NCBI GenBank assembly: GCA_003141525.1
Contig: PLML01000004.1
Span: 787 to 64,786, forward strand
DNA length: 64,000 nucleotides
Direction of reading: 5' to 3'
Source: Bacteroidales bacterium
GTDB lineage: Bacteria > Bacteroidota > Bacteroidia > Bacteroidales > VadinHA17
The notes under the pieces were generated by a model that was not told the DNA's origin, made no database searches, and saw only the letters and a list, made by a program, of their open reading frames with translations. The number at the start of each line of letters is the position of its first letter. Position 1 is the stretch's first letter. Made by a program: the position numbers and the translations under genes. This document shows positions 1,671-61,141 of the stretch, piece by piece.

Positions 1671-2004
1671 ACAATTTGATATCTGGATTGCGGATCTCGT
1701 ACCACAACGAGGAACAGAAACCGGCAAAGTAAGACCTGTTTTAATTGTTCAAACCAACCTTTTAAATAACGTGCACCCATCTACTTTTATTTGTCCCATT
1801 ACAACCAATGTAGAGAAAGACAGCGATATATTAAGGGTTCATATAAGAAAGGGAATCGCAAATCTCAAGATTGAATCTGATATTATGATTGATCAAATCA
1901 GAGCTATTGATAACAGAAGATTGTTAAATAAAATTGGCGAACTGACAAAAGAGCTTCAATTAAAAGTTAAGGATAATATCAAAATAATTTTTGATCTGGA
2001 CTAG
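1645..2004 (+). CDS. mazF: PemK/MazF-family toxin (mRNA interferase)
   Basis: FDIWIADLVPQRGTETGKVRPVLIVQTN...ICPITT...IMIDQIRAIDNRRL are classic MazF/PemK motifs. The true start may be an internal Met a few codons in. Confidence 0.8.
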   Translation: MKISMMKIKQFDIWIADLVPQRGTETGKVRPVLIVQTNLLNNVHPSTFICPITTNVEKDSDILRVHIRKGIANLKIESDIMIDQIRAIDNRRLLNKIGELTKELQLKVKDNIKIIFDLD

Positions 2005-2015
2005 CTCAATTGTTA

Positions 2016-2051
2016 AGGAGAAAGTAAGTAAAAAGTAAAAAGTAAAAAGTG
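2016..2051. repeat. left arm C (AAGTAAAA units)
   Basis: The sequence aggagaaagtaagtaaaaagtaaaaagtaaaaagtg is the inverted partner of 2697-2739. Confidence 0.75.
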
Positions 2052-2205
2052 TTTATTTATTATGAAGGAGAATGATTTAAAGGAACGTTTATTCCGTTTT
2101 GCGGTTAATGTGTTAAAAATGCTCGGAACATTAAAAGGGGGAAAAGAGACAGATGTTATAAAATATCAATTATCAAAATCAGCTACTTCATCTGGCGCTA
2201 ATTAT

Positions 2206-2493
2206 TCACCCTGTCAAATTGCATCAAATTGTTAAAAGATTTTTATTGTACATATGTTTTAAGGAGTTTGACCGATTTCAAATTTTACGTTGGTTTTACA
2301 TCAGATTTGATGCAAAGATTTGAGGCGCATAACGCGGGTAAAGTACCTTCAACCAAAAATCGGAGACCTTTTGAAATTGTATACTTCGAAGGTTGTCGCT
2401 CAAAAGAAGATGCAATTAATCGAGAGAAATATCTGAAAACATTTTATGGGAAGATGTTTTTGAAAAACCGCCTCAAATCTTATTTGACTGGGT
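2206..2493 (+). mobile_element. 288-bp GIY-YIG micro-element with inverted termini CCCTGTCAAAT/ATTTGACTGGG
   Basis: The left end is tcaCCCTGTCAAAT (2209-2219) and the right end is ATTTGACTGGGt (2482-2492). It carries only the 88-codon GIY-YIG ORF and sits precisely inside a conserved host codon block. Confidence 0.75.
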
Positions 2494-2495
2494 AG
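2229..2495 (+). CDS. small GIY-YIG nuclease family protein
   Basis: YVLRSLTDFKFYVGFTSDLMQRFEAHNAG...REKYLKTFYGKMFLKNRL carries the GIY/YIG, R and E motifs of the UPF0213-like single-domain GIY-YIG proteins. The start is non-ATG (TTG) in the track. Confidence 0.85.
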   Translation: MLKDFYCTYVLRSLTDFKFYVGFTSDLMQRFEAHNAGKVPSTKNRRPFEIVYFEGCRSKEDAINREKYLKTFYGKMFLKNRLKSYLTG

Positions 2496-2696
2496 AGAAT
2501 CTCAATCTGGATCCTCAAAGGCAGATTTTGCGAATAAAGTGAGAATTTCATTGCGAGAAATGCGCGAATCAAATTATTGGTTACGAATTATAAAGGAACT
2601 TTTCCCAAAAACAGAAAATATTGTATATTTAGTTGGCGAAAGCGAAGAGCTAGGAAAAATTCTTGCTTCAATTCTAATAAAATCACGGAACTGACT

Positions 2697-2739
2697 CATT
2701 CTTTACTTTTACCTTTTTACTTTTTACTTTTTACTTTAT
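2697..2739. repeat. right arm C
   Basis: The sequence cattctttacttttacctttttactttttactttttactttatc is the reverse complement of the AAGTAAAA units. Confidence 0.75.
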
Positions 2740-2814
2740 CCCACTTTTGTCTTGTGACTTTTGTCTTTTATCTTTAACCCCACTTTTGTCTTGTGACTTT
2801 TGTCTTTTATCTTA
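2740..2814. repeat. right/outer arm A, present as a 38-bp tandem duplication
   Basis: cccacttttgtcttgtgacttttgtcttttatctt occurs twice (2740-2776 and 2778-2814). It pairs with 833-877. Confidence 0.8.
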
Positions 2815-2825
2815 AACATAATATA

Positions 2826-3608
2826 ATGAAGCACCTCACCCTCATACTATCTACTGCCTTACTTCTGGCCGCTTCCTGTACCAGCCAAAAGAAACTAGCG
2901 TATCTGAATAATCTCCCCGAGCCAAAAGGTGAAGAGTCGTTTAACATGTCTATCCCGGACTATAAAATCCAGCCGCGCGATATACTTTATATTTCAGTAA
3001 AAGCTATGGCCCCTGATGGTTCAATTAAAGATTTCTTATCATCTGGTAGTAATAACGGGATGTACTTAACACAGGGTGATGCAGGAGGGGCTTTTATGGG
3101 CTATAATGTCAGCCCGGATGGGTACATTACACTAGTGCCAATTGGACAGATAAAAGTAAGTGGTCTTACACTGGAGGAAACCAGAAAAAAACTGCAGGAA
3201 TTAACAGAAAAAGTCTTCCTAAACTCAACTGTAGAATGTAAATTGCTCAGTTTTAAATTTACGGTGATTGGAGAAGTCAAAAGTCCGGGAGCATATATCA
3301 ATTACAATAATTACCTGACTGTTATTGAAGCAATTGGACGCGCCGGAGGAGTAGGCGACTTAGGAAACAGGAACCGGATCCTGGTTGTTCGTCCGATTGA
3401 TAAGGGAACCAAAACCTATAGAATTAATCTGCAGGATAAAAATATTCTTACATCAGAAGCATATTTTCTTCTTCCAAATGACGTGGTAATAGTGGAACCG
3501 GTGAGACAGAAGATCTTTAACATGAATGTGCCGACTATTTCTTTTGTAATCTCAACCTTCACAGCAACAATTACGATGACACTTTTGCTCATTAATTATT
3601 TGAAATAA
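2826..3608 (+). CDS. wza: polysaccharide export outer-membrane lipoprotein (Wza/BexD family)
   Basis: Lipoprotein signal MKHLTLILSTALLLAASC. Poly_export/SLBB-like motifs are PDYKIQPRDILYISV, GYITLVPIGQIKVSGLTLEE and VIGEVKSPG. The track ORF start at 2793 translates the repeat arm, so I use the Met at 2826. Confidence 0.85.
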   Translation: MKHLTLILSTALLLAASCTSQKKLAYLNNLPEPKGEESFNMSIPDYKIQPRDILYISVKAMAPDGSIKDFLSSGSNNGMYLTQGDAGGAFMGYNVSPDGYITLVPIGQIKVSGLTLEETRKKLQELTEKVFLNSTVECKLLSFKFTVIGEVKSPGAYINYNNYLTVIEAIGRAGGVGDLGNRNRILVVRPIDKGTKTYRINLQDKNILTSEAYFLLPNDVVIVEPVRQKIFNMNVPTISFVISTFTATITMTLLLINYLK

Positions 3609-3612
3609 AAAA

Positions 3613-3668
3613 TTCTAAGTTCAAAGTTCAAAGTTCAAAGTTCAATGTTCCAAGTTCCATGTTTAAAG
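3613..3668. repeat. left arm D (CAAAGTT units)
   Basis: The sequence ttctaagttcaaagttcaaagttcaaagttcaatgttccaagttccatgtttaaag is the inverted partner of 4361-4400. Confidence 0.75.
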
Positions 3669-3837
3669 ACATATTTATATGAAGATAGAGAAGTTTGAAG
3701 ATCTGGAGATTTGGCAAGAAGCCAGGGAGTTATGCAAAAGAGTCTTTGAAATAACTTCCGTCAGTCCGTTTTGCAATGACTTTAAATTTAGGGATCAGAT
3801 CAGAGCTTCATCTGGATCAGTAATGGATAATATAGCC

Positions 3838-4127
3838 TGCCCTGTGAAATAGCAAGATGTATTATGTATATATACTTATAAGCGAAAAAGATAACATGTT
3901 TTATACAGGTTATACATCAGACCTTGAAAATCGAATAGAAGAGCATTTGAAAGGGAAAGTAAATTCTACTAGGCACAGATTGCCTTTAAAGCTTGTCTAC
4001 TATGAATGTTCTATTAATCAGGATGATGCGCTTCATAGAGAGAAATATCTTAAAAGTACGTATGGCAAACGATATATTAAGAACCGTTTAAAACATTTTC
4101 TAAATGAGTAAATATTTCACAGGGCAA
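3838..4127 (+). mobile_element. 290-bp GIY-YIG micro-element with perfect 13-bp inverted termini GCCCTGTGAAATA
   Basis: GCCCTGTGAAATA at 3839-3851 and TATTTCACAGGGC at 4113-4125. The only cargo is an 84-codon GIY-YIG ORF. Confidence 0.8.
3857..4111 (+). CDS. small GIY-YIG nuclease family protein
   Basis: [30 protein letters not shown]...[18 protein letters not shown] is a paralog of the 2229-2495 product. Confidence 0.85.
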
Positions 4128-4360
4128 GAAGGCTTCGAACGTGGTGGAAATAAAGAGTTTATCCAGTTTCTGAGTATTGCCAAGGGATCTTGTGGTGAAG
4201 TCCGTTCACAATCTTATCGATCATTTGACTATAAATATATTAACCAGGAAATTTTGGATGAACTTATTTCCAGAACAATGCAACTAAGCAAGAAAATCTC
4301 ATCACTTATAGGATATTTGAAAAATAGCGAATTTAAAGGCTCAAAATTCCATACCTCATA

Positions 4361-4400
4361 ACTTTGAACCTTGAACCTTGAACATTTAACCTTGAACCTG
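4361..4400. repeat. right arm D
   Basis: The sequence actttgaaccttgaaccttgaacatttaaccttgaacctg runs directly into the wzc start codon. Confidence 0.75.
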
Positions 4401-6838
4401 TGACCATGGATCCAAATTATCCCTCCCCCCCTCAGCCAAACCTCCCCGAGGACGACAACCTCGACATAAAAAGATATCTAACTCTGTTCATGAGCAACTG
4501 GTACTGGTTTGCAATCTCATTATTTATTGCACTGACAGTTGCCTATGGCATAAACAGGTACTCCAGTAAACTATATACTATTTCGTCAACACTCATGATA
4601 AGTGATGACCAGTATTCAGGGTCGAGCAGAATTGTAAGCAGCGCAATCCCCGGAGGAGATATTTTCAGGAGCAAGCCAAACATAACAAATGAAATATCAA
4701 TACTGAAATCTTTCAGCCTCAATAAAAGAGTAATAGACTCATTACCCGAATTCAGGGTGGCATATTATGGTGTCGGAAAAAGAAACATCGCTGAGACCCA
4801 GCTTTATAAAAACTGTCCTTTCAGGGTAACATCAGAATCTGTTGATGTTCAGCCTAAAAATGTAAGAGTAAATATCATTATAAGTTCTGCAACAACTTAT
4901 TCACTGGAAATTAATGGGAATAAGAATGTTGAAAAGGACCTTAAATTTGGCCGGCTCTTCAGTAAAGATGGTTTTAAATTCATTATTGAATTGAGAGATC
5001 CGAATAATTTTAAATTTAATCCTAAAGTATCAAATAAATACTATTTTTATTTTACATCTTCTGACGAACTGGCAAACAATTACAGGGCAAATCTGAGTGT
5101 GGCACCGATTGAAAAAGATGCCACTATTGTTAATTTATCTAAAGTAGGTCTGGATCCGCAGCAGGAAGCTGATTACCTGAATAAACTTATGGAAGTATAT
5201 AGAAATCAGGGTTTGGAATCTAAGAATCATATTGCTGACACTACAATTGCTTTTATAGATAAACAACTCGGCTTTGTTGCAGATTCTCTTAAAAAGGCCG
5301 ATAATAAACTTCAGAGATTAAGACTTGACAACAAATTGATTGACCTCGGTAAGGATGGCACTCTTTTACAAACTCGTTTAGAGAAGTTTGCGAATGAAAA
5401 AGTATCCCTTAAGCTTCAATATTATTATTTTCAATATCTGAAAGAATATCTTGACACCAAAAACGAATCGGGTGATATTGTTTCTCCGAATGTTATGGGA
5501 ATTACCGAACCGACGTTAGGAAAACTGGTTCAGGAACTTTCAGAACTCCAGAAAAAGAAGAAAGAGATGTCTATGAACCTTTCAGCGGAGGTGCCGCCGT
5601 TAAATCTATTAACTGAAAACATACACAAAATAAGAATGGCTCTTACCGAGAATATAAAGAGTAGTTTTGCCAGTATAGAACATTTAATTGACGATTCAGA
5701 AAAAAATATAGAAGAGGTGAACCAGGAGATAAATAAACTTCCGGGAACCGAAAGTAAGAGGATAGGTATTCAGAGAGACTTTGATATAAGCAATACTGTT
5801 TATACCTATCTTCTTGAGAAAAGAGCTGAAACCGGTATTGCAAAGGCTTCAAATGTCCCGGACAGCAAAATTGTTGATTATGCAAATATCATTAATACCG
5901 TCCAAATTAAACCAAAGCCAGGAGGGAACAATTTAAAGGCATTACTTTTTGGCATATTAATTCCCGCGGTCATTTTATTCTTATTATATTATTTAAATAA
6001 CAAAATTATCGACAACGGGGACATTATTAAAAAAACAAATGTACCGATAATGGGGTATGTCAGTCACAGCGAATTTAAAAAAGAGATCCCTGTTATTGAT
6101 AACCCGAAATCAGCTCTTTCAGAATCATTCCGTTCAATCAGAACATCTTTACGATATTTTACAAAACAATCCAGCCATTCTGTTATTGCCATTACATCCA
6201 CTATAAGCTCGGAGGGGAAAACTTTTATATCAATTAATCTTGCAGCAATAACGGCACTGCTTGGTAAAAAAGTATTATTAATCGGTCTCGATCTTCGGAG
6301 ACCAAGGATACACAAAATCCTGGGGATTGACAATAGCGAGGGTCTCAGCACCTATTTAATAGGTAATTGTGAATATAAAGAAGTTATAAAGGAAACATCA
6401 TTAAAGAATCTGTATTATGCTACTTCCGGACCAGTACCCCCAAATCCGGCTGAACTGCTAGAGGAGGAAAGGATGGATGCATTTATTGTGAAAGCGAAAA
6501 AGGAGTTTGATTATATATTTATAGATACCCCACCGATTGCGATAGTTTCAGATACTTTATTAATTGCCAGGTTTGTAGATGTTAATCTTTTTATTGTGAG
6601 GCAGAGGTATACCTCAAAAAATACATTGGAATTAATTGAGGAATTATACAAGGATGAAAAACTTAAACACATGGGGATTATTATTAATGATATAAGCCTT
6701 ACAGGTTATTATGGGTATGGGATAAGATACGGCTATTATAAGGGTTATGGATATTCATACGGTAAAAACTACTATGGGCAGTATTCTTACAGCCGGTACG
6801 GATATTCAGATAAAGAACATGGATATTATAATACTTAA
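4400..6838 (+). CDS. wzc: chain-length determinant / tyrosine autokinase (Wzc/GumC family)
   Basis: 812 aa with a Wzz-like periplasmic coiled-coil region and two TM segments. Walker A is SEGKTFISINLA, followed by DLRRP and IDTPP. The C-terminal tail is Tyr-rich (YYGYGIRYGYYKGYGYSYGKNYYGQYSYSRYGY). The start is GTG 4400 or ATG 4406. Confidence 0.9.
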   Translation: MTMDPNYPSPPQPNLPEDDNLDIKRYLTLFMSNWYWFAISLFIALTVAYGINRYSSKLYTISSTLMISDDQYSGSSRIVSSAIPGGDIFRSKPNITNEISILKSFSLNKRVIDSLPEFRVAYYGVGKRNIAETQLYKNCPFRVTSESVDVQPKNVRVNIIISSATTYSLEINGNKNVEKDLKFGRLFSKDGFKFIIELRDPNNFKFNPKVSNKYYFYFTSSDELANNYRANLSVAPIEKDATIVNLSKVGLDPQQEADYLNKLMEVYRNQGLESKNHIADTTIAFIDKQLGFVADSLKKADNKLQRLRLDNKLIDLGKDGTLLQTRLEKFANEKVSLKLQYYYFQYLKEYLDTKNESGDIVSPNVMGITEPTLGKLVQELSELQKKKKEMSMNLSAEVPPLNLLTENIHKIRMALTENIKSSFASIEHLIDDSEKNIEEVNQEINKLPGTESKRIGIQRDFDISNTVYTYLLEKRAETGIAKASNVPDSKIVDYANIINTVQIKPKPGGNNLKALLFGILIPAVILFLLYYLNNKIIDNGDIIKKTNVPIMGYVSHSEFKKEIPVIDNPKSALSESFRSIRTSLRYFTKQSSHSVIAITSTISSEGKTFISINLAAITALLGKKVLLIGLDLRRPRIHKILGIDNSEGLSTYLIGNCEYKEVIKETSLKNLYYATSGPVPPNPAELLEEERMDAFIVKAKKEFDYIFIDTPPIAIVSDTLLIARFVDVNLFIVRQRYTSKNTLELIEELYKDEKLKHMGIIINDISLTGYYGYGIRYGYYKGYGYSYGKNYYGQYSYSRYGYSDKEHGYYNT

Positions 6839-8886: not shown

Positions 8887-9294
8887 ATGGTAACAAAAAA
8901 GAAAATAGTGGTTATAATTGAAAAGACAGATACCGGATTTTCTGCTTATTCAGAAGACTATCCGGTATTTACAACAGGAGCAACAGTGAATGAGTTGCTT
9001 GAAAATACCAATGAAGGTTTCACCCTTTACTTTGGGGATAAAAATCATGGTACGCAACAGATTTACTATGAAATAGATTTTAAGCAGTTCTTTCAATACT
9101 ATAAGGTGATAAACTCCAAAGCACTTGCTGAGAAGATCGGCATGAATCCTACTCTTTTATCTCAATATGTGAGAGGTCATAAAAGACCATCCGAGAAACA
9201 AAGCCGAAGGATTCTGTATGGTATTAACAAGATCGGACAGGAACTGGCTGAAATGAGTGTTATTTATGAAAAACAAGATAAAAGACAAAAGTAA
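8887..9294 (+). CDS. hicB: HicB-family antitoxin with C-terminal HTH
   Basis: It has a UPF0150-like N-terminus (VVIIEKTDTGFSAYSEDYPVFTTGATVNELLEN) and an XRE-like HTH (LAEKIGMNPTLLSQYVRG). It lies directly downstream of hicA. Confidence 0.75.
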   Translation: MVTKKKIVVIIEKTDTGFSAYSEDYPVFTTGATVNELLENTNEGFTLYFGDKNHGTQQIYYEIDFKQFFQYYKVINSKALAEKIGMNPTLLSQYVRGHKRPSEKQSRRILYGINKIGQELAEMSVIYEKQDKRQK

Positions 9295-9354
9295 AAAGAT
9301 AAAAGTAGGGCCGAGCGTTAAGAATTTGCCCGGTGGGCAAATTTAGCGACGGAG
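9271..9354. repeat. composite left arm (family A units plus unique segment G containing palindrome AATTTGCC-N5-GGCAAATT)
   Basis: gataaaagtagggccgagcgttaagaatttgcccggtgggcaaatttagcgacggag matches the reverse complement of 12477-12543 with only a few mismatches. Confidence 0.8.
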
Positions 9355-9367
9355 CCAGTTTGTAGCG

Positions 9368-9508
9368 ATGGAAAAGAAAAATGACCTTTGCGAAAGGCTT
9401 TTTGAATTTGCAGTAAGAGTCATTGAATTTTTGAAAACATTATCCTATTCACCTGAAAATAAAACTATTCGGACACAACTGTCAAAAAGCGCTGATTGGA
9501 TTAGTTGA
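9368..9508 (+). pseudogene. 5' fragment of a four-helix-bundle gene (GANY subtype)
   Basis: MEKKNDLCERLFEFAVRVIEFLKTLSYSPENKTIRTQLSKSA is nearly identical to the 13474 copy. It then diverges and stops (DWIS*). Confidence 0.75.
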
Positions 9509-10626: not shown

Positions 10627-10725
10627 CTTGAACTTTGAACCTTAAACTTTGAACTTTGAACTTTTATCTTTTTACTTTTGTCTTTTGTCTTATTCCATAC
10701 TTTTGCCTTTTTACTTTTGTCTTGA
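10627..10725. repeat. stacked orphan right arms (D-type then A-type)
   Basis: cttgaactttgaaccttaaactttgaactttgaac is followed by ttttatctttttacttttgtcttttgtcttattccatacttttgcctttttacttttgtcttga. No matching left arm lies nearby. Confidence 0.65.
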
Positions 10726-11580: not shown

Positions 11581-11697
11581 TTCAAAACGAGAACCGACCC
11601 GCTTTTCACTTTCTCCTTGTTATCTTTACTTTTGTCTTGTGACTTTTGTCTTTTATCTTTATTTCAACCTCAACCTCAACCTAAACCTGAACCTCAA
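11581..11697. repeat. stacked arms: unique segment J, A-type right arm, E-type right arm
   Basis: tcaaaacgagaaccgacccgcttttcactttctc is the partner of 12225-12305. acttttgtcttgtgacttttgtcttttatctt is the A family. caacctcaacctcaacctaaacctgaacctcaag is the partner of 9866-9903. Confidence 0.65.
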
Positions 11698-11988: not shown

Positions 11989-12123
11989 CAAAACTGTAAT
12001 TGTTCCTTGCCCTGTGAAATAGCACAAAGCCCCCGCCCTGGCCATATTTCACAGGGCCGGCACCCCGGAAGGAAATCCCTATTGGTACTTTTCGTTCAAT
12101 AATAAGACAATCAGGATTAAACC
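11985..12123 (+). pseudogene. decayed HicA-like toxin gene
   Basis: It starts MTKL and then hits a stop. After the 49-bp insert is mentally removed, the same frame reads FVPSAPRKEIPIGTFRSIIRQSGL, a HicA C-terminal motif. The central dsRBD-like part is missing and the 3' end appears frameshifted. Confidence 0.45.
12010..12058. mobile_element. 49-bp miniature derivative of the 3838-4127 element
   Basis: GCCCTGTGAAATAGCA...ATATTTCACAGGGC has termini identical to the 290-bp element, with only about 20 nt between them. Confidence 0.7.
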
Positions 12124-12379: not shown

Positions 12380-12543
12380 ACTTTTGTCTTTTTCCTTTCT
12401 CCTTTTGCCTTTTGCCTTGATTCTACTTTTATCTTGTGACTTTTGTCTTTTGTCTTGATCCACCCCTGCATGCTGTCCCCTTCGCTAAATTTGCCTACCA
12501 GGCAAATTTTTAACGCTCGGTCCTGTCTTTTATCTTTATAGAG
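12380..12543. repeat. composite right arms (long A-type, then G', then short A')
   Basis: cttttgtctttttcctttctccttttgccttttgccttgattctacttttatcttgtgacttttgtcttttgtcttga is followed by ccttcgctaaatttgcctaccaggcaaatttttaacgctcggtcctgtcttttatcttt. It ends one nt before the wzm ATG. Confidence 0.8.
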
Positions 12544-13441: not shown

Positions 13442-13478
13442 TAAAGATAAAAGACAAAAGTCACAAGATAAAAGTGGA
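13442..13478. repeat. left arm A (third copy)
   Basis: taaagataaaagacaaaagtcacaagataaaagtgg is the exact reverse-complement style of the 32-bp ACTTTTGTCTTGTGACTTTTGTCTTTT motif. Confidence 0.8.
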
Positions 13479-13951
13479 AGAAAAGAAAAATGATTTGTGC
13501 GAGAGACTCTTTGAGTTTGCAGTAAGAGTAATTGAATTTTTAAAAACACTACCTTATTCCCCAGAAAATAAAACTATTCGTACGCAATTATCAAAAAGTG
13601 CTTGTTCGTCAGGAGCTAATTACTCGCCCTGTCAAATTGCATCAAATTGTTAAAAGATTTTTATTTTATATATGTTTTAAGGAGTTTAACTGATTTCAAA
13701 TTCTATGTTGGTTTTACATCAGATTTGATGCAAAGATTTGACAGGGTGAAGAGTCTCAAAGCGGTTCATCCAAGGCAGACTTTTCTAACAAAGTCAGGAT
13801 TTCCCTTCGTGAAATGAGAGAATCAAATTATTGGCTCAGAATAATTATAAGAACTGTTAAAGAAGTTAATGGGCCAGAACTCGACTACCTTATAAAAGAA
13901 TCAGGAGAACTCAAAAACATCCTTGGCTCTATAGTCCAAAAAACCAGATAA
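13474..13951 (+). pseudogene. four-helix-bundle gene (GANY subtype) interrupted by a 124-bp miniature element
   Basis: The 5' half reads (V/M)EEKKNDLCERLFEFAVRVIEFLKTLPYSPENKTIRTQLSKSACSSGANY (to 13623). The 3' half reads EESQSGSSKADFSNKVRISLREMRESNYWLRII... (13748-13951). Removing 124 nt restores the frame. Confidence 0.85.
13624..13747. mobile_element. 124-bp non-autonomous (MITE-like) derivative of the 2206-2493 element
   Basis: The termini are CCCTGTCAAAT (13627-13637) and ATTTGACAGGG (13736-13746). The interior equals the first ~115 nt of the full element, including the 5' part of the GIY-YIG ORF, with 6 mismatches by my count. Confidence 0.8.
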
Positions 13952-13956
13952 TCAAC

Positions 13957-13999
13957 CTCTTTTTACTTTTGTCTTGTGACTTTTGTCTTTTGTCTTTGA
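13957..13999. repeat. right arm A
   Basis: The sequence ctctttttacttttgtcttgtgacttttgtcttttgtctttga. Confidence 0.8.
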
Positions 14000-47084: not shown

Positions 47085-48195
47085 AAAGGTTTTGCGCCAG
47101 GCAATATTTGATTCTGATTTCTTTGGACATGGGGGAGAAAAACGCACTGCGCAGATCTCAAATTTATTGACCGCTAATAATATTGAATATATTCTTGTTC
47201 CCGGCTTAGTTAAACAAAAGATTTCTTTAGCATTTTTAAAGAATTTAGTATTATCAGTTCTAATTAATATTAAAATCGGATTAAGATTAAGATCAATCAG
47301 CTCCATTCTAAATATGGTCAAGAGAATCTACCATTCTGCCCTGATAATCAATAGCATTGAGAAAATCTCAAGATTTGACACCTCAATTTTCCTATGGGAA
47401 GGAACTAAACCAGAAAACTATATATATCCTATTTACTTTAAAAGACTAAAATACAAGGTAATTGGCTTACCCCATAATTTAGAATCATTAGTCCCTTCAC
47501 AGTTTTCCAAAATTACAAATAAAAAATCCCCTTCATGGTTGTGGGAAGAAATGGCAATGCTCAAGGTTTGTGATGTTGTATTTACTATATCACGAGAAGA
47601 AAATCTCTTACTGAAACAATTTGGTATCGATGCACAATATTTGCCTTATTTCCCTGCTGGTGATGTTTATCATCGTCTTTTGGATATAAGATCCCATCGT
47701 ACCAGGAAGAAAGAAATAAAAGCTATTAAGAAATTGCTTATGCTTGGGTCAATAATTAATATACCTACCCGACTAGGAATGATTGACAGAATTGACTGGT
47801 TTGTTAATTCAAAACCTGACAATTATAAATTAGGAATTGCCGGATATTCAACGGAAGAACTAAAAAGCATAATTATTGATTCAGAAAATATTGTCCTTTA
47901 CGGATCCCTGTCAAATGATCAATTATACGATATGCTTTCGGAGGTAGATGCTGTTCTTATACATCAGGTTGCCAGTTCAGGAGCTCTCACAAAAATTCCG
48001 GAGATGCTTATTGCCGGAATTCCTATCTTAATTAATTGTGAAAGTGCAAGAAGCTACTATAATATCGATGGTTTAAATATTTACGAAAATGATGCAGAAC
48101 TTAATGAATATCTTTTAAATGAGAAGGTATTCCGTGTTCCTCCTTTACCACAAATACCCTACTCTTATTTTAAAAGTTTTTTAAATAGAATCTGA
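47077..48195 (+). CDS. hypothetical protein with GT-B-like C-terminal half
   Basis: 372 aa. The C-terminal LGIAGYSTEE...AVLIHQVASSGALTKIPEMLIAGIPIL is reminiscent of GT1/GT4 donor-binding domains. I saw no clear EX7E. Confidence 0.3.
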   Translation: MNRKVLRQAIFDSDFFGHGGEKRTAQISNLLTANNIEYILVPGLVKQKISLAFLKNLVLSVLINIKIGLRLRSISSILNMVKRIYHSALIINSIEKISRFDTSIFLWEGTKPENYIYPIYFKRLKYKVIGLPHNLESLVPSQFSKITNKKSPSWLWEEMAMLKVCDVVFTISREENLLLKQFGIDAQYLPYFPAGDVYHRLLDIRSHRTRKKEIKAIKKLLMLGSIINIPTRLGMIDRIDWFVNSKPDNYKLGIAGYSTEELKSIIIDSENIVLYGSLSNDQLYDMLSEVDAVLIHQVASSGALTKIPEMLIAGIPILINCESARSYYNIDGLNIYENDAELNEYLLNEKVFRVPPLPQIPYSYFKSFLNRI

Positions 48196-59625: not shown

Positions 59626-59985
59626 ATGGATAATAAAGAGTTTGGCAGGCAGCTAGAAAACAGAACAAAAAAGTTTGCAATTTGTGTTATAAGATTATCC
59701 GCGGCTTTACCAAATACTACGGAAGGGAAAGTCATTAGGAATCAATTTACAAAATCCGGAACAAGCATAGGAGCAAACTATAGAGAAGCTAACAGAGCCA
59801 GAAGCAAAGCAGATTTCTTTAGTAAAATAAAAATATGTGAAAGTGAGTCAAGTGAGACAGCGTACTGGTTAGAGATAATCCATGAGTTAAACTGGGTTGA
59901 AAACAACAAAACTGAAGAACTTCTTGCCGAAGCAAATGAACTGCTTGCAATTTTTACCTCAGCAGGTAAAACTTTAAAACTTTAA
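59626..59985 (+). CDS. four-helix-bundle protein (23S rRNA IVS protein family), GANYRE subtype, intact
   Basis: FAICVIRLSAALP and SGTSIGANYREANRARSKADFFSKIKICESESSETAYWLEII. This shows the uninterrupted target motif. Confidence 0.85.
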   Translation: MDNKEFGRQLENRTKKFAICVIRLSAALPNTTEGKVIRNQFTKSGTSIGANYREANRARSKADFFSKIKICESESSETAYWLEIIHELNWVENNKTEELLAEANELLAIFTSAGKTLKL

Positions 59986-60787: not shown

Positions 60788-61141
60788 ATGAAAACCCATA
60801 AAGATTTAGACGTTTGGAATTATTCAATTGATCTTGTTACGGAATTATATCAAATTACTGCTAAATTCCCAAAAGAAGAAACCTATGGTTTATCTTCGCA
60901 GATGAGAAGAGCTGCAGTTTCAATACCTTCAAATATTGCAGAAGGGGCAGCACGAAATCACAAAAATGAATTTCGCCAGTTTCTTTATATTTCCCTTTCA
61001 AGCGCCGCTGAACTTGAAACTCAACTTATTATTTCAGAAAGACTTTCATATATCTCAAAAAACCAAAATGAAAATCTTATTGATAAACTTAACACTATAT
61101 CCCGAATGCTCCAGGGTCTAATCAAATCAATAAATCACTAA
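60788..61141 (+). CDS. four-helix-bundle protein (23S rRNA IVS protein family), NIAEG subtype, intact
   Basis: DLDVWNYSIDLV, RRAAVSIPSNIAEGAARNHKNEFRQFLYISLSSAAELETQL. Confidence 0.9.
   Translation: MKTHKDLDVWNYSIDLVTELYQITAKFPKEETYGLSSQMRRAAVSIPSNIAEGAARNHKNEFRQFLYISLSSAAELETQLIISERLSYISKNQNENLIDKLNTISRMLQGLIKSINH

Follow-up and report, generated by a model that had tools for sequence, protein, structure and literature searches.

A 288-bp GIY-YIG insert in a Bacteroidales four-helix gene belongs to a family of self-folding micro-elements found in many phyla

The interrupted four-helix gene and its insert

The window analyzed here is a 64,000-bp stretch of a Bacteroidales genome of the VadinHA17 lineage (contig PLML01000004.1, assembly GCA_003141525.1). 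It covers a polysaccharide-export and biosynthesis locus that carries Wza-like, Wzc-like and Wzm/Wzt genes with small accessory cassettes in between. This report concerns a 288-bp insert that splits a gene of the four-helix family PF05635/TIGR02436 near the start of the window (Table 1). The host open reading frame (ORF) reads ...SKSATSSGANY up to the last base before the insert and continues as RESQSGSSKADF directly after it, so that the insertion point lies exactly between the GANY and RE codons. The joined halves match the paralogs along their full length in tblastn searches, and the four-helix paralogs exceed the TIGR02436 cut-off in a profile search. A preliminary description of this DNA, made from the letters alone, had claimed boundaries exact to the codon, and the reading of the host ORF, the PF05635 match and the intact paralog at 59626 all agree with it.

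The same description called the insertion in frame. This is true as arithmetic but has no functional meaning: within the insert the host frame runs into a TAA (2233-2235), and the nuclease ORF uses another frame. Because the host frame stops there, and because sister copies are 290 and 124 bp long, the fact that 288 is a multiple of 3 is incidental. The C-terminal half has no usable in-frame start codon, and the four-helix gene is simply destroyed by this insertion. Two kinds of intervening sequence were considered and rejected. An intein was discarded on account of the stop in the host frame and the different frame of the inserted ORF, and a group I or group II intron or other known RNA found no relevant Rfam match in the window at the gathering threshold, in positions 1950-4450 at E <= 1, or in 20 related loci.

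The insert opens with (TC)ACCCTGTCAAAT and closes with ATTTGACTGGGT. Its inverted ends, CCCTGTCAAAT (2209-2219) and ATTTGACTGGG (2482-2492), extend over 11 nt with one mismatch, or over 12 nt if A2208 and T2493 are counted. The sole ORF encodes a GIY-YIG nuclease in which PF01541 spans residues 6-75 and the motif residues Y9, Y20, G22, R30, H34 and E66 are all present; its final codons, Y-L-T-G-stop, are themselves the right end of the element. We found no target-site duplication at any boundary offset, either for this copy or for 73 relatives. Inverted termini on an insert of about 290 bp, an 88-codon single-domain nuclease as the only cargo, the overlap of that ORF with the right terminus and the missing duplication had all been noted in the preliminary description, and each of these points stands.

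That description overlooked the three other copies in the window as well as the conserved fold described below. The window contains the pattern CCCNGTSAAAT nine times without mismatch. Eight of these matches form four convergent pairs at gene discontinuities; the ninth, a solo match at 47906 within a gene, was dismissed as a chance match. Copy 2 is autonomous and splits a second four-helix gene at a site that is the homologous motif to that of copy 1, offset by one codon. Copy 3 is non-autonomous and sits in a third four-helix gene, and the fourth copy is a gene-less hairpin in what appears, as read by eye, to be the remnant of a hicA-type toxin gene. Over their shared 124 bp, copies 1 and 3 are 93.5% identical (116/124), whereas the host halves that flank them are only 63.7% and 66.8% identical. 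An identity of 93.5% for the element against about 65% for its hosts means that the insert is far younger than the four-helix paralogs. Copies 1 and 3 may have arrived at the same codon independently or by conversion; as judged from these identities, the pattern is one of recent site-specific spread between diverged paralogs in this genome.

Several further observations concern the split genes. The stop of the copy 2 nuclease overlaps an ATG at 4104 (ATGAGTAA, 4104-4111), from which an 85-aa ORF runs across the right end into the C-terminal half of the host, a possible translationally coupled half-protein that copy 1 does not have. We rejected rescue of the split four-helix protein as a general feature, since by eye the C-terminal halves at copy 1 and at one surveyed locus (L007) have no usable start. 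An orphan four-helix N-terminal half at 9374-9493, closest to the gene at 13483, stops after ...QLSKSA, some codons short of the point of insertion at GANY, with neither an element nor a C-terminal half after it.

Table 1. Coordinates of the element copies, their parts, the four-helix genes and associated repeats in the window
Feature	Position	Strand	Remarks
Autonomous element copy 1, 288 bp	2206..2493	+	Host frame broken at 2205/2206, resumes at 2494; aligns with 68 relatives
Left end, helix P1 5' arm, ACCCTGTCAAAT	2208..2219	+	Family consensus TTYACCCYGTNAAAT
Right end, helix P1 3' arm, ATTTGACTGGGT	2482..2493	+	Also encodes C-terminal Y-L-T-G
GIY-YIG nuclease ORF, 88 aa, single-domain, TTG start	2229..2495	+	PF01541, E = 2.4e-16
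Helix Pa 5' arm, TGCATCAAAT	2220..2229	+	Pairs with 2305-2314; single-stranded DNA fold
Helix Pa 3' arm, ATTTGATGCA	2305..2314	+	Codons just before R-F-E
Helix Pb 5' arm, AAGATTTGAGGCG, codons R-F-E-A	2315..2327	+	Pairs 13/13 with 2469-2481
Helix Pb 3' arm, CGCCTCAAATCTT, codons R-L-K-S	2469..2481	+	Directly abuts right end
Host four-helix gene (PF05635/TIGR02436), N-terminal half	2062..2205	+	tblastn to paralogs; local four-helix hidden Markov model
Host four-helix gene, C-terminal half	2494..2694	+	Pfam PF05635 positions 48-105; frame read by eye
Intact four-helix paralog, reads GANYREANRARSKADF	59626..59985	+	Equivalent site 59781/59782, GGAGCAAACTAT/AGAGAAGC
Autonomous copy 2, 290 bp, perfect 14-bp ends	3838..4127	+	GIY-YIG ORF 3857-4111
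Second four-helix host gene, split by copy 2	3679-3837 and 4128-4361	+	Break between NIA and EG
Non-autonomous copy 3, 124 bp	13624..13747	+	Copy-1-type; internal deletion between two ATTTGA motifs
Third four-helix host gene, carries copy 3	13483-13623 and 13748-13951	+	Same GANY codon
Mini hairpin, 49 bp, gene-less	12009..12057	+	Copy-2-type ends GCCCTGTGAAATA...TATTTCACAGGGC
(GTAAAAA)n inverted repeat around copy 1 host cassette	2026..2050	+	Upstream arm; partner 2705-2737
Four-helix bracket arrays	908-934/1336-1362; 2026-2050/2705-2737; 3608-3642/4360-4387
Four-helix bracket arrays	6849-6895/7269-7372; 13443-13475/13965-13997; 59534-59565/59979-60010
26-nt motif sites	845-870, 2743-2768, 2782-2807, 9281-9306, 10660-10685, 11628-11653, 12425-12450, 13450-13475, 13965-13990

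A family with shared ends and a three-way junction

Relatives of the nuclease fall into more than 2000 protein clusters at 60-89% identity, with at least 569 confirmed genomic matches. Their hosts include Bacteroidota, Ignavibacteriota, Balneolaceae, Patescibacteria, Cloacimonadota, Bdellovibrionales and Desulfobacterales, among others, and the six motif residues named above are invariant across them. For a genomic survey we took 80 loci from many phyla, 77 of which carried a near-complete relative. The same ends, TTYACCCYGTNAAAT...ATTTNACNGGGTRAA, are found in 73 of the 77. They are conserved over about 15-16 bp (consensus TTYACCCYGTNAAATA on the left and its complement on the right), longer than first seen, and their variable N base covaries between left and right: the column pair 13/300 is GC in 33 elements, UA in 18 and CG in 17. 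The end-to-end length as called is 274-309 bp, with most relatives at 277-294 bp. Only one relative was found on viral contigs, and plasmids gave no close homologs, just distant UPF0213/Ssn-type matches. The literature that we searched holds no description of the element, and the preliminary description, too, could not place it in a described class; the only related work is the paper on the Ssn nucleases (PMC11893778).

A survey of end pairs and their host context had been proposed in the preliminary description, together with the claim that the element targets one protein family. The conserved termini were found as expected, but only about 17 of the 80 loci (about 20%) lie in PF05635 four-helix genes, at three different positions within them. 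At another 21 the element directly follows the ...TGGAGF codons of an NAD-dependent epimerase/dehydratase gene, three loci are in RHS cores (NYVY/NYTDHLGNVR) and two are in Ssn-type GIY-YIG genes; the remainder are intergenic or within other genes. In other words, four-helix genes are strongly over-represented among the targets, yet they are not the sole target, and the class of target tracks the lineage of the element. Orientation is strict: the element is co-oriented with the host gene at 15 of 15 four-helix loci and for 21 of 21 epimerase-type elements. Because of this, and because the TTG start in copy 1 lies 4 nt upstream of the stop of the truncated host N-terminal half (2233-2235), expression of the nuclease probably depends on the interrupted gene. 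In five Patescibacteria loci (L034, L036, L038, L059 and L063) the sequences just outside the two ends are, by eye, inverted repeats of each other, for example GCGAACAAAATTTATTTACC...GGTAGATAAATTTATTTCGC, and the element there is apparently nested in a larger palindrome.

When copy 1 is folded as single-stranded DNA (ssDNA), its ends pair with each other to form helix P1, and two internal helices, Pa and Pb, complete a three-way junction with zero unpaired junction bases (z-score -3.7). We measured covariation in an alignment of 69 elements, using column shuffles and slid partners as controls. The junction helices are paired in 87.9% of cells, compared with 77.3% in column shuffles (0/500) and 28-50% with slid partners, and cells in which both sides are altered number 301 against 106 in shuffles. 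Compensatory changes occur at 11 of the 13 family pairs of Pa. In Pb the covariation is at the level of codons, those for R-F-E against those for L-K-S, with the combinations AGA/TCT, CGA/TCG and CTT/AAG. Specifically, AGATTTGAG goes with CTCAAATCT (43 and 44 elements, respectively), CGA with TCG (10 and 13), and CTT, which encodes Leu, with AAG (four each), while a change of GAG to AAG, from Glu to Lys, accompanies a change of CTC to CTT. Such compensatory codon changes, some of which alter the amino acid, indicate that the DNA fold constrains and sometimes overrides the protein sequence. Mismatches in the junction helices are balanced (94 G.T and 135 C.A), and the lack of a sense-strand G.U excess favors structure at the level of DNA over mRNA. 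As judged from the covariation, a gap-free three-way junction made of the two ends and two internal stems is conserved in the family.

The fold recurs in copies that have lost the gene. We searched metagenome contigs for exact ACCCTGTNAAAT-N4-34-ATTTNACAGGGT, a pattern for which the chance expectation was estimated to be of order one, and found more than 120 stretches that bear such miniature elements (minis). Their N bases are complementary in 75 of the 81 copies read, and their flanks are TTT/TTC...AAA/GAA, as around full elements. P1 with two short hairpins is the fold of 56 of the 81, and 48 of these 56 have zero unpaired junction bases. The three-way-junction minis measure 50-58 bp, and the deletion derivatives go down to hairpins of 32-58 bp. 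The sequences of the hairpins inside the minis vary from copy to copy; that is, by these predicted folds, it is the junction that is kept and not the sequence within it. No Rfam family matches the minis. The link between minis and full elements is their shared ends; a relative of the nuclease is encoded on two of 80 mini-bearing metagenome stretches (L128 and L168), about 3 kb from the mini.

The epimerase-type elements (21 loci, L003-L071) have an additional feature. Their right end is followed by a tail of about 80 nt that closes with a start codon and MxxILVTGGAGF and runs on in frame into IGS..., the continuation of an intact gene, while the original 5' end of the gene remains upstream of the left end as a dead fragment. 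One locus (L033, 2433-3800) carries about four such units in tandem, and at two others (L024, 2383-2842, and L029) a unit with a deletion lies upstream of a complete unit. Read most simply, a replacement 5' gene end would belong to the mobile unit and recreate the target, which would also permit insertion to be repeated; alternatively, the 5' duplication may be generated locally.

Apart from the epimerase tails, three arrangements suggest insertion next to existing ends. These are a tandem array of four 52-bp minis (L049, 2792-3000), a 32-bp mini hairpin immediately before the left end of a full element (L044, about 2440-2500), and a right end that is followed 2 nt later by another left end (L028, 2750-2790).

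Relation to known systems and competing explanations

An AlphaFold (AF2) model of the 88-aa nuclease is a compact single domain with a pLDDT of 93. The nearest matches in both sequence and structure are SLX1 and UPF0213 (YhbQ, BH0048); the best structural ones are the UPF0213 protein BH0048 (1zg2, E = 1e-10) and the Slx1 nuclease domain (TM-score 0.63-0.66, 31-34% identity). Slx1 processes branched DNA, which parallels the branched, three-way DNA fold that the element encodes. In contrast to SLX1/UPF0213, however, the element nuclease has neither a RING domain nor an Slx4-type partner, and it is embedded in a mobile repeat rather than being a housekeeping single-copy gene. The analogy with homing endonucleases drawn in the preliminary description is weak at the protein level: I-TevI and Seg enzymes have a C-terminal DNA-binding domain where the 88-aa nuclease has no second domain, TIGR01453 scores are 16-22 bits against a cut-off of 56, and the structural match to I-TevI is marginal (E = 0.4).

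Outside the protein itself, several known systems share some traits of the element. Free-standing GIY-YIG and HNH homing genes occur in T4-like phages, such as those for the Seg proteins and mobE, which splits nrdA in phage Aeh1. As with the element, a nuclease gene there, carried by neither an intron nor an intein, spreads to a conserved cognate site and can split the host gene. Their enzymes, however, have DNA-binding domains and cut double-stranded DNA (dsDNA), and the genes are not known to have inverted ends, a folded-DNA signature or miniature derivatives. They are phage-borne, whereas a single relative of the element was found on viral contigs. The IS200/IS605 and REP/RAYT systems move by ssDNA 'peel and paste', using folded ssDNA ends and an HUH tyrosine transposase with covalent intermediates. 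They share with the element the lack of a target duplication, orientation-specific insertion and associated short palindromic repeats. Yet the ends of IS200/IS605 fold separately and are not mutual inverted repeats, whereas those of the element pair with each other, and their enzyme is an HUH Y1 transposase where the only ORF here is a GIY-YIG nuclease. Classical insertion sequences with terminal inverted repeats, and MITEs (miniature transposable elements with inverted repeats), resemble the element in those repeats and in deletion derivatives that retain them; the element differs in having no target-site duplication and no DDE-type or other recognized transposase. The Rickettsia palindromic elements and MITE-like repeats are short palindromic selfish DNA found within ORFs at conserved positions, and in this they resemble the element. 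We know of no cognate gene inside these repeats and of no three-way junction described for them.

The closest comparison is with the Ssn family (cd10448), single-domain GIY-YIG enzymes that cut only ssDNA beside NTS/SRM hairpins (Chenal et al. 2025, PMC11893778). The genes of that family are flanked by NTS/SRM hairpins in an architecture called 'identical to' that of an insertion sequence, for which mobility was not shown; the authors propose domestication, and suggest that SsnA/NTS in Neisseria restricts or shapes the recombination of incoming ssDNA (PMC11893778). Both systems have a single-domain GIY-YIG protein of about 90 aa, whose gene is bracketed by inverted-repeat DNA, and gene-less hairpin copies dispersed in genomes. 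The grammar of the hairpins is similar as well: TGTCA-stem-loop-stem'-TC for the SRM-like repeats beside Ssn-type genes in Flavobacteria, and TTYA-stem...stem'-T[CAG] for the ends of the element. The nuclease is 35% identical over 72/97 residues (E = 2e-12) to an SRM-flanked homolog from Azospirillum, and hhalign against the Azospirillum Ssn-type protein gives a probability of 98.7%, over residues 2-72 only. The nuclease lacks the Ssn-type KxWxRxWKxxLIExxNPxW tail; its C-terminal third, encoded by Pb and the right end, is unrelated to that of Ssn. The layouts also differ, since complete hairpins flank the gene in Ssn, whereas in the element the gene lies inside the hairpin, with one arm on each flank and two extra helices. 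The published SRM pattern has no match in the window and occurs within 500 bp at one of 77 loci. In addition, and unlike Ssn, the element has copies placed with precision within coding sequences, and its recent spread is directly evident. These comparisons are consistent with a sister family of Ssn, in which the recognition hairpin would be split by the gene and held together by two helices.

The Azospirillum locus is of interest in its own right. On the A. lipoferum plasmid NC_016623 (L090, 255385-255906), an Ssn-type GIY-YIG gene lies between sufB and sufC, within an Fe-S cluster operon, with two canonical NTS hairpins on each side (four in total).

On balance, we consider it somewhat more probable than the alternatives combined that the insert at 2206-2493 is an autonomous copy of a selfish mobile micro-element with an SLX1/UPF0213-like, Ssn-related nuclease, processed as folded ssDNA. 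The single strand would be available, for instance, where forks replicate DNA or when DNA is taken up or transferred. Pa and Pb would zip up the gene and so let the distant ends form the recognition helix of the nuclease, P1, a would-be equivalent of the Ssn SRM/NTS hairpin that is split by its own gene. The nuclease would recognize the three-way junction and cut at the foot of P1, and host replication and repair would then copy or re-insert the element. Preferred targets would be short conserved DNA motifs of multi-copy gene families, with a homing-like fidelity in each lineage and occasional jumps.

A number of points weigh against this reading. Cleavage, its strand, its substrate and the mode of re-insertion are all steps that we infer from sequence. 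GIY-YIG enzymes are hydrolytic and have, to our knowledge, no strand-transfer activity, so that integration must be delegated to the host. The only start of the copy 1 nuclease is a TTG. Copy 2, for all its strong ends and its fold (z = -4.8), is a divergent branch that does not have the Pa/Pb pattern of the family; shared ancestry can inflate counts of covariation when the sequences are related; and the balance of G.T and C.A mismatches is suggestive of DNA rather than RNA but is not proof. No empty allele of the GANY/RE site was found, with 0 matches in metagenome contigs, and every contig of this strain that reaches the site carries the insert, while the similar site of the intact paralog, 59781/59782, is without one.

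Much of the same evidence could be read as classical free-standing homing, in which an intronless GIY-YIG gene makes a dsDNA break in an empty allele, repair copies the gene across, and the ends and stems are by-products. An insert much younger than the diverged paralogs in which it occupies one and the same codon-precise site, the strict orientation of the copies and the tracking of target class with lineage would all follow, and duplicated gene 5' ends at the epimerase loci are what repair from a donor allele is expected to leave. We nevertheless regard homing as unlikely: the 88-aa protein is without a DNA-binding domain and matches SLX1/UPF0213 clearly and I-TevI marginally, a homing endonuclease gene needs neither conserved covarying ends nor a three-way junction, about half of the surveyed copies are at unrelated, non-homologous sites, and gene-less minis retain the junction. 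Less likely again is an inactive relic, a single ancient insertion inherited vertically with the host gene family and no longer moving, which we think very improbable even though no empty allele was found, copy 1 starts with TTG and copy 3 is deleted. The identities of 93.5% and about 65% are difficult to reconcile with it, as are catalytic residues invariant across phyla, the many unrelated insertion sites and tandem arrays of near-identical units.

Two further explanations would give the insert a function for the host. An intervening sequence (IVS) that leaves the transcript by means of the end helix, as rRNA IVSs do, could restore or regulate the four-helix mRNA. P1 does bring both host junctions together, the length of copy 1 is a multiple of 3, and the host family is known, as its Pfam name records, from intervening sequences in 23S rRNA; rRNA IVSs often code for proteins of PF05635. 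However, RNase III-type removal of an IVS leaves the RNA in fragments that are not rejoined, Rfam searches at gathering and permissive thresholds gave no intron or ribozyme family, lengths of 290 and 124 bp occur among the other copies, there is no excess of G.U over C.A, and the minis and many full copies are intergenic; we give this explanation as little credence as the relic. The other, a doubtful but less remote candidate that we would place below homing, is a domesticated Ssn-like system that serves the host, for instance by restricting or shaping ssDNA recombination, with the copies inside genes as old accidents. It draws on the core homology to Ssn-type proteins, the similar hairpin grammar, the fixation of the copies in all contigs of this strain and the proposal made for Ssn itself (PMC11893778). 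Against it stand insertions that destroy genes, near-identical copies within diverged paralogs, tandem and nested insertions, the absence of canonical SRM repeats, and a protein identity of 60-70% across phyla that suggests horizontal spread.

The reading as a selfish ssDNA-processed element can be extended to a broader proposal, for which we would put the chances at slightly below even. The family would then be a class of mobile element, prokaryotic and autonomous, that had gone unrecognized. At about 290 bp the element would rank with the smallest known, and it would move by means of a hydrolytic SLX1-like GIY-YIG nuclease that recognizes the element's own ssDNA three-way junction; the derivatives of 50-58 bp would be a widespread family of junction repeats, and some lineages would spare essential targets by supplying a replacement 5' end. 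For the present, the element is best grouped with systems of the Ssn/SRM kind, and its sequence gives direct evidence of mobility in addition.

Neighboring cassettes and wider meaning

Other repeats in the window are associated with the four-helix genes. Short tandem repeats in inverted arrays stand on both sides of six of the seven four-helix genes, the gene at 60788 being without a bracket, and the unit differs from gene to gene (GCGCAGA, GTAAAAA, GTTCAAA, TAAGGT and others). With such arrays a four-helix gene would lie in the loop above a long stem, an arrangement that resembles an rRNA intervening sequence. Around the host of copy 1, the GTAAAAA array has three units in the window and six in contigs that are otherwise about 99% identical (L081, L085). 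In a strain that is 96.6% identical (L088) the whole repeat-bracketed cassette is missing, with a breakpoint exactly at window position 2026, and an Ssn-type GIY-YIG gene stands in its place (1756-2043 of that sequence). Given the change in array copy number and the loss of the cassette, the four-helix cassette itself looks variable or mobile.

A 26-nt motif, ACTTTTGTCTTGTGACTTTTGTCTTT, occurs nine times in the window, in both orientations, where none would be expected. It lies between genes, beside small accessory cassettes such as toxin-antitoxin-type modules and four-helix genes. Separately, a 66-nt inverted repeat (9307-9372/12459-12524, 82% complementary) encloses a 3.1-kb island with a PIN-domain gene, a hicB-like ORF, the hicA-like remnant and the 49-bp mini element.

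The element in the four-helix gene is not a homing element specific to such genes; it belongs to a large family of GIY-YIG micro-elements that fold on themselves and occur in many phyla. What appears to be new here is the covarying three-way-junction structure of the family, which the literature that we searched does not describe. For annotation, such elements can explain split four-helix genes, short 5' 'epimerase' fragments and numerous orphan ORFs of the GIY-YIG type across Bacteroidota, Patescibacteria and other phyla as their products. Constraints overlap in the coding sequence, which the DNA structure also shapes, so that the fold of the gene partly determines the C-terminus of the protein that it encodes. 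Full elements and minis alike conserve a perfect three-way junction of DNA, which is also a concrete biochemical substrate, and the system could become a programmable ssDNA-cutting tool with new specificities.

If the proposed model is true, a single 88-aa hydrolytic nuclease enables a unit of about 290 bp to spread both within phyla and from one phylum to another, by a mechanism of mobility that differs from those of DDE, serine, tyrosine and HUH enzymes. Whether NTS-ssnA-NTS is a mobile element was left open in the Ssn paper (PMC11893778), and the present family is sequence evidence for that idea. Should the family prove to be an unrecognized class, the Ssn/SRM systems would be explained as descendants or relatives of such elements.

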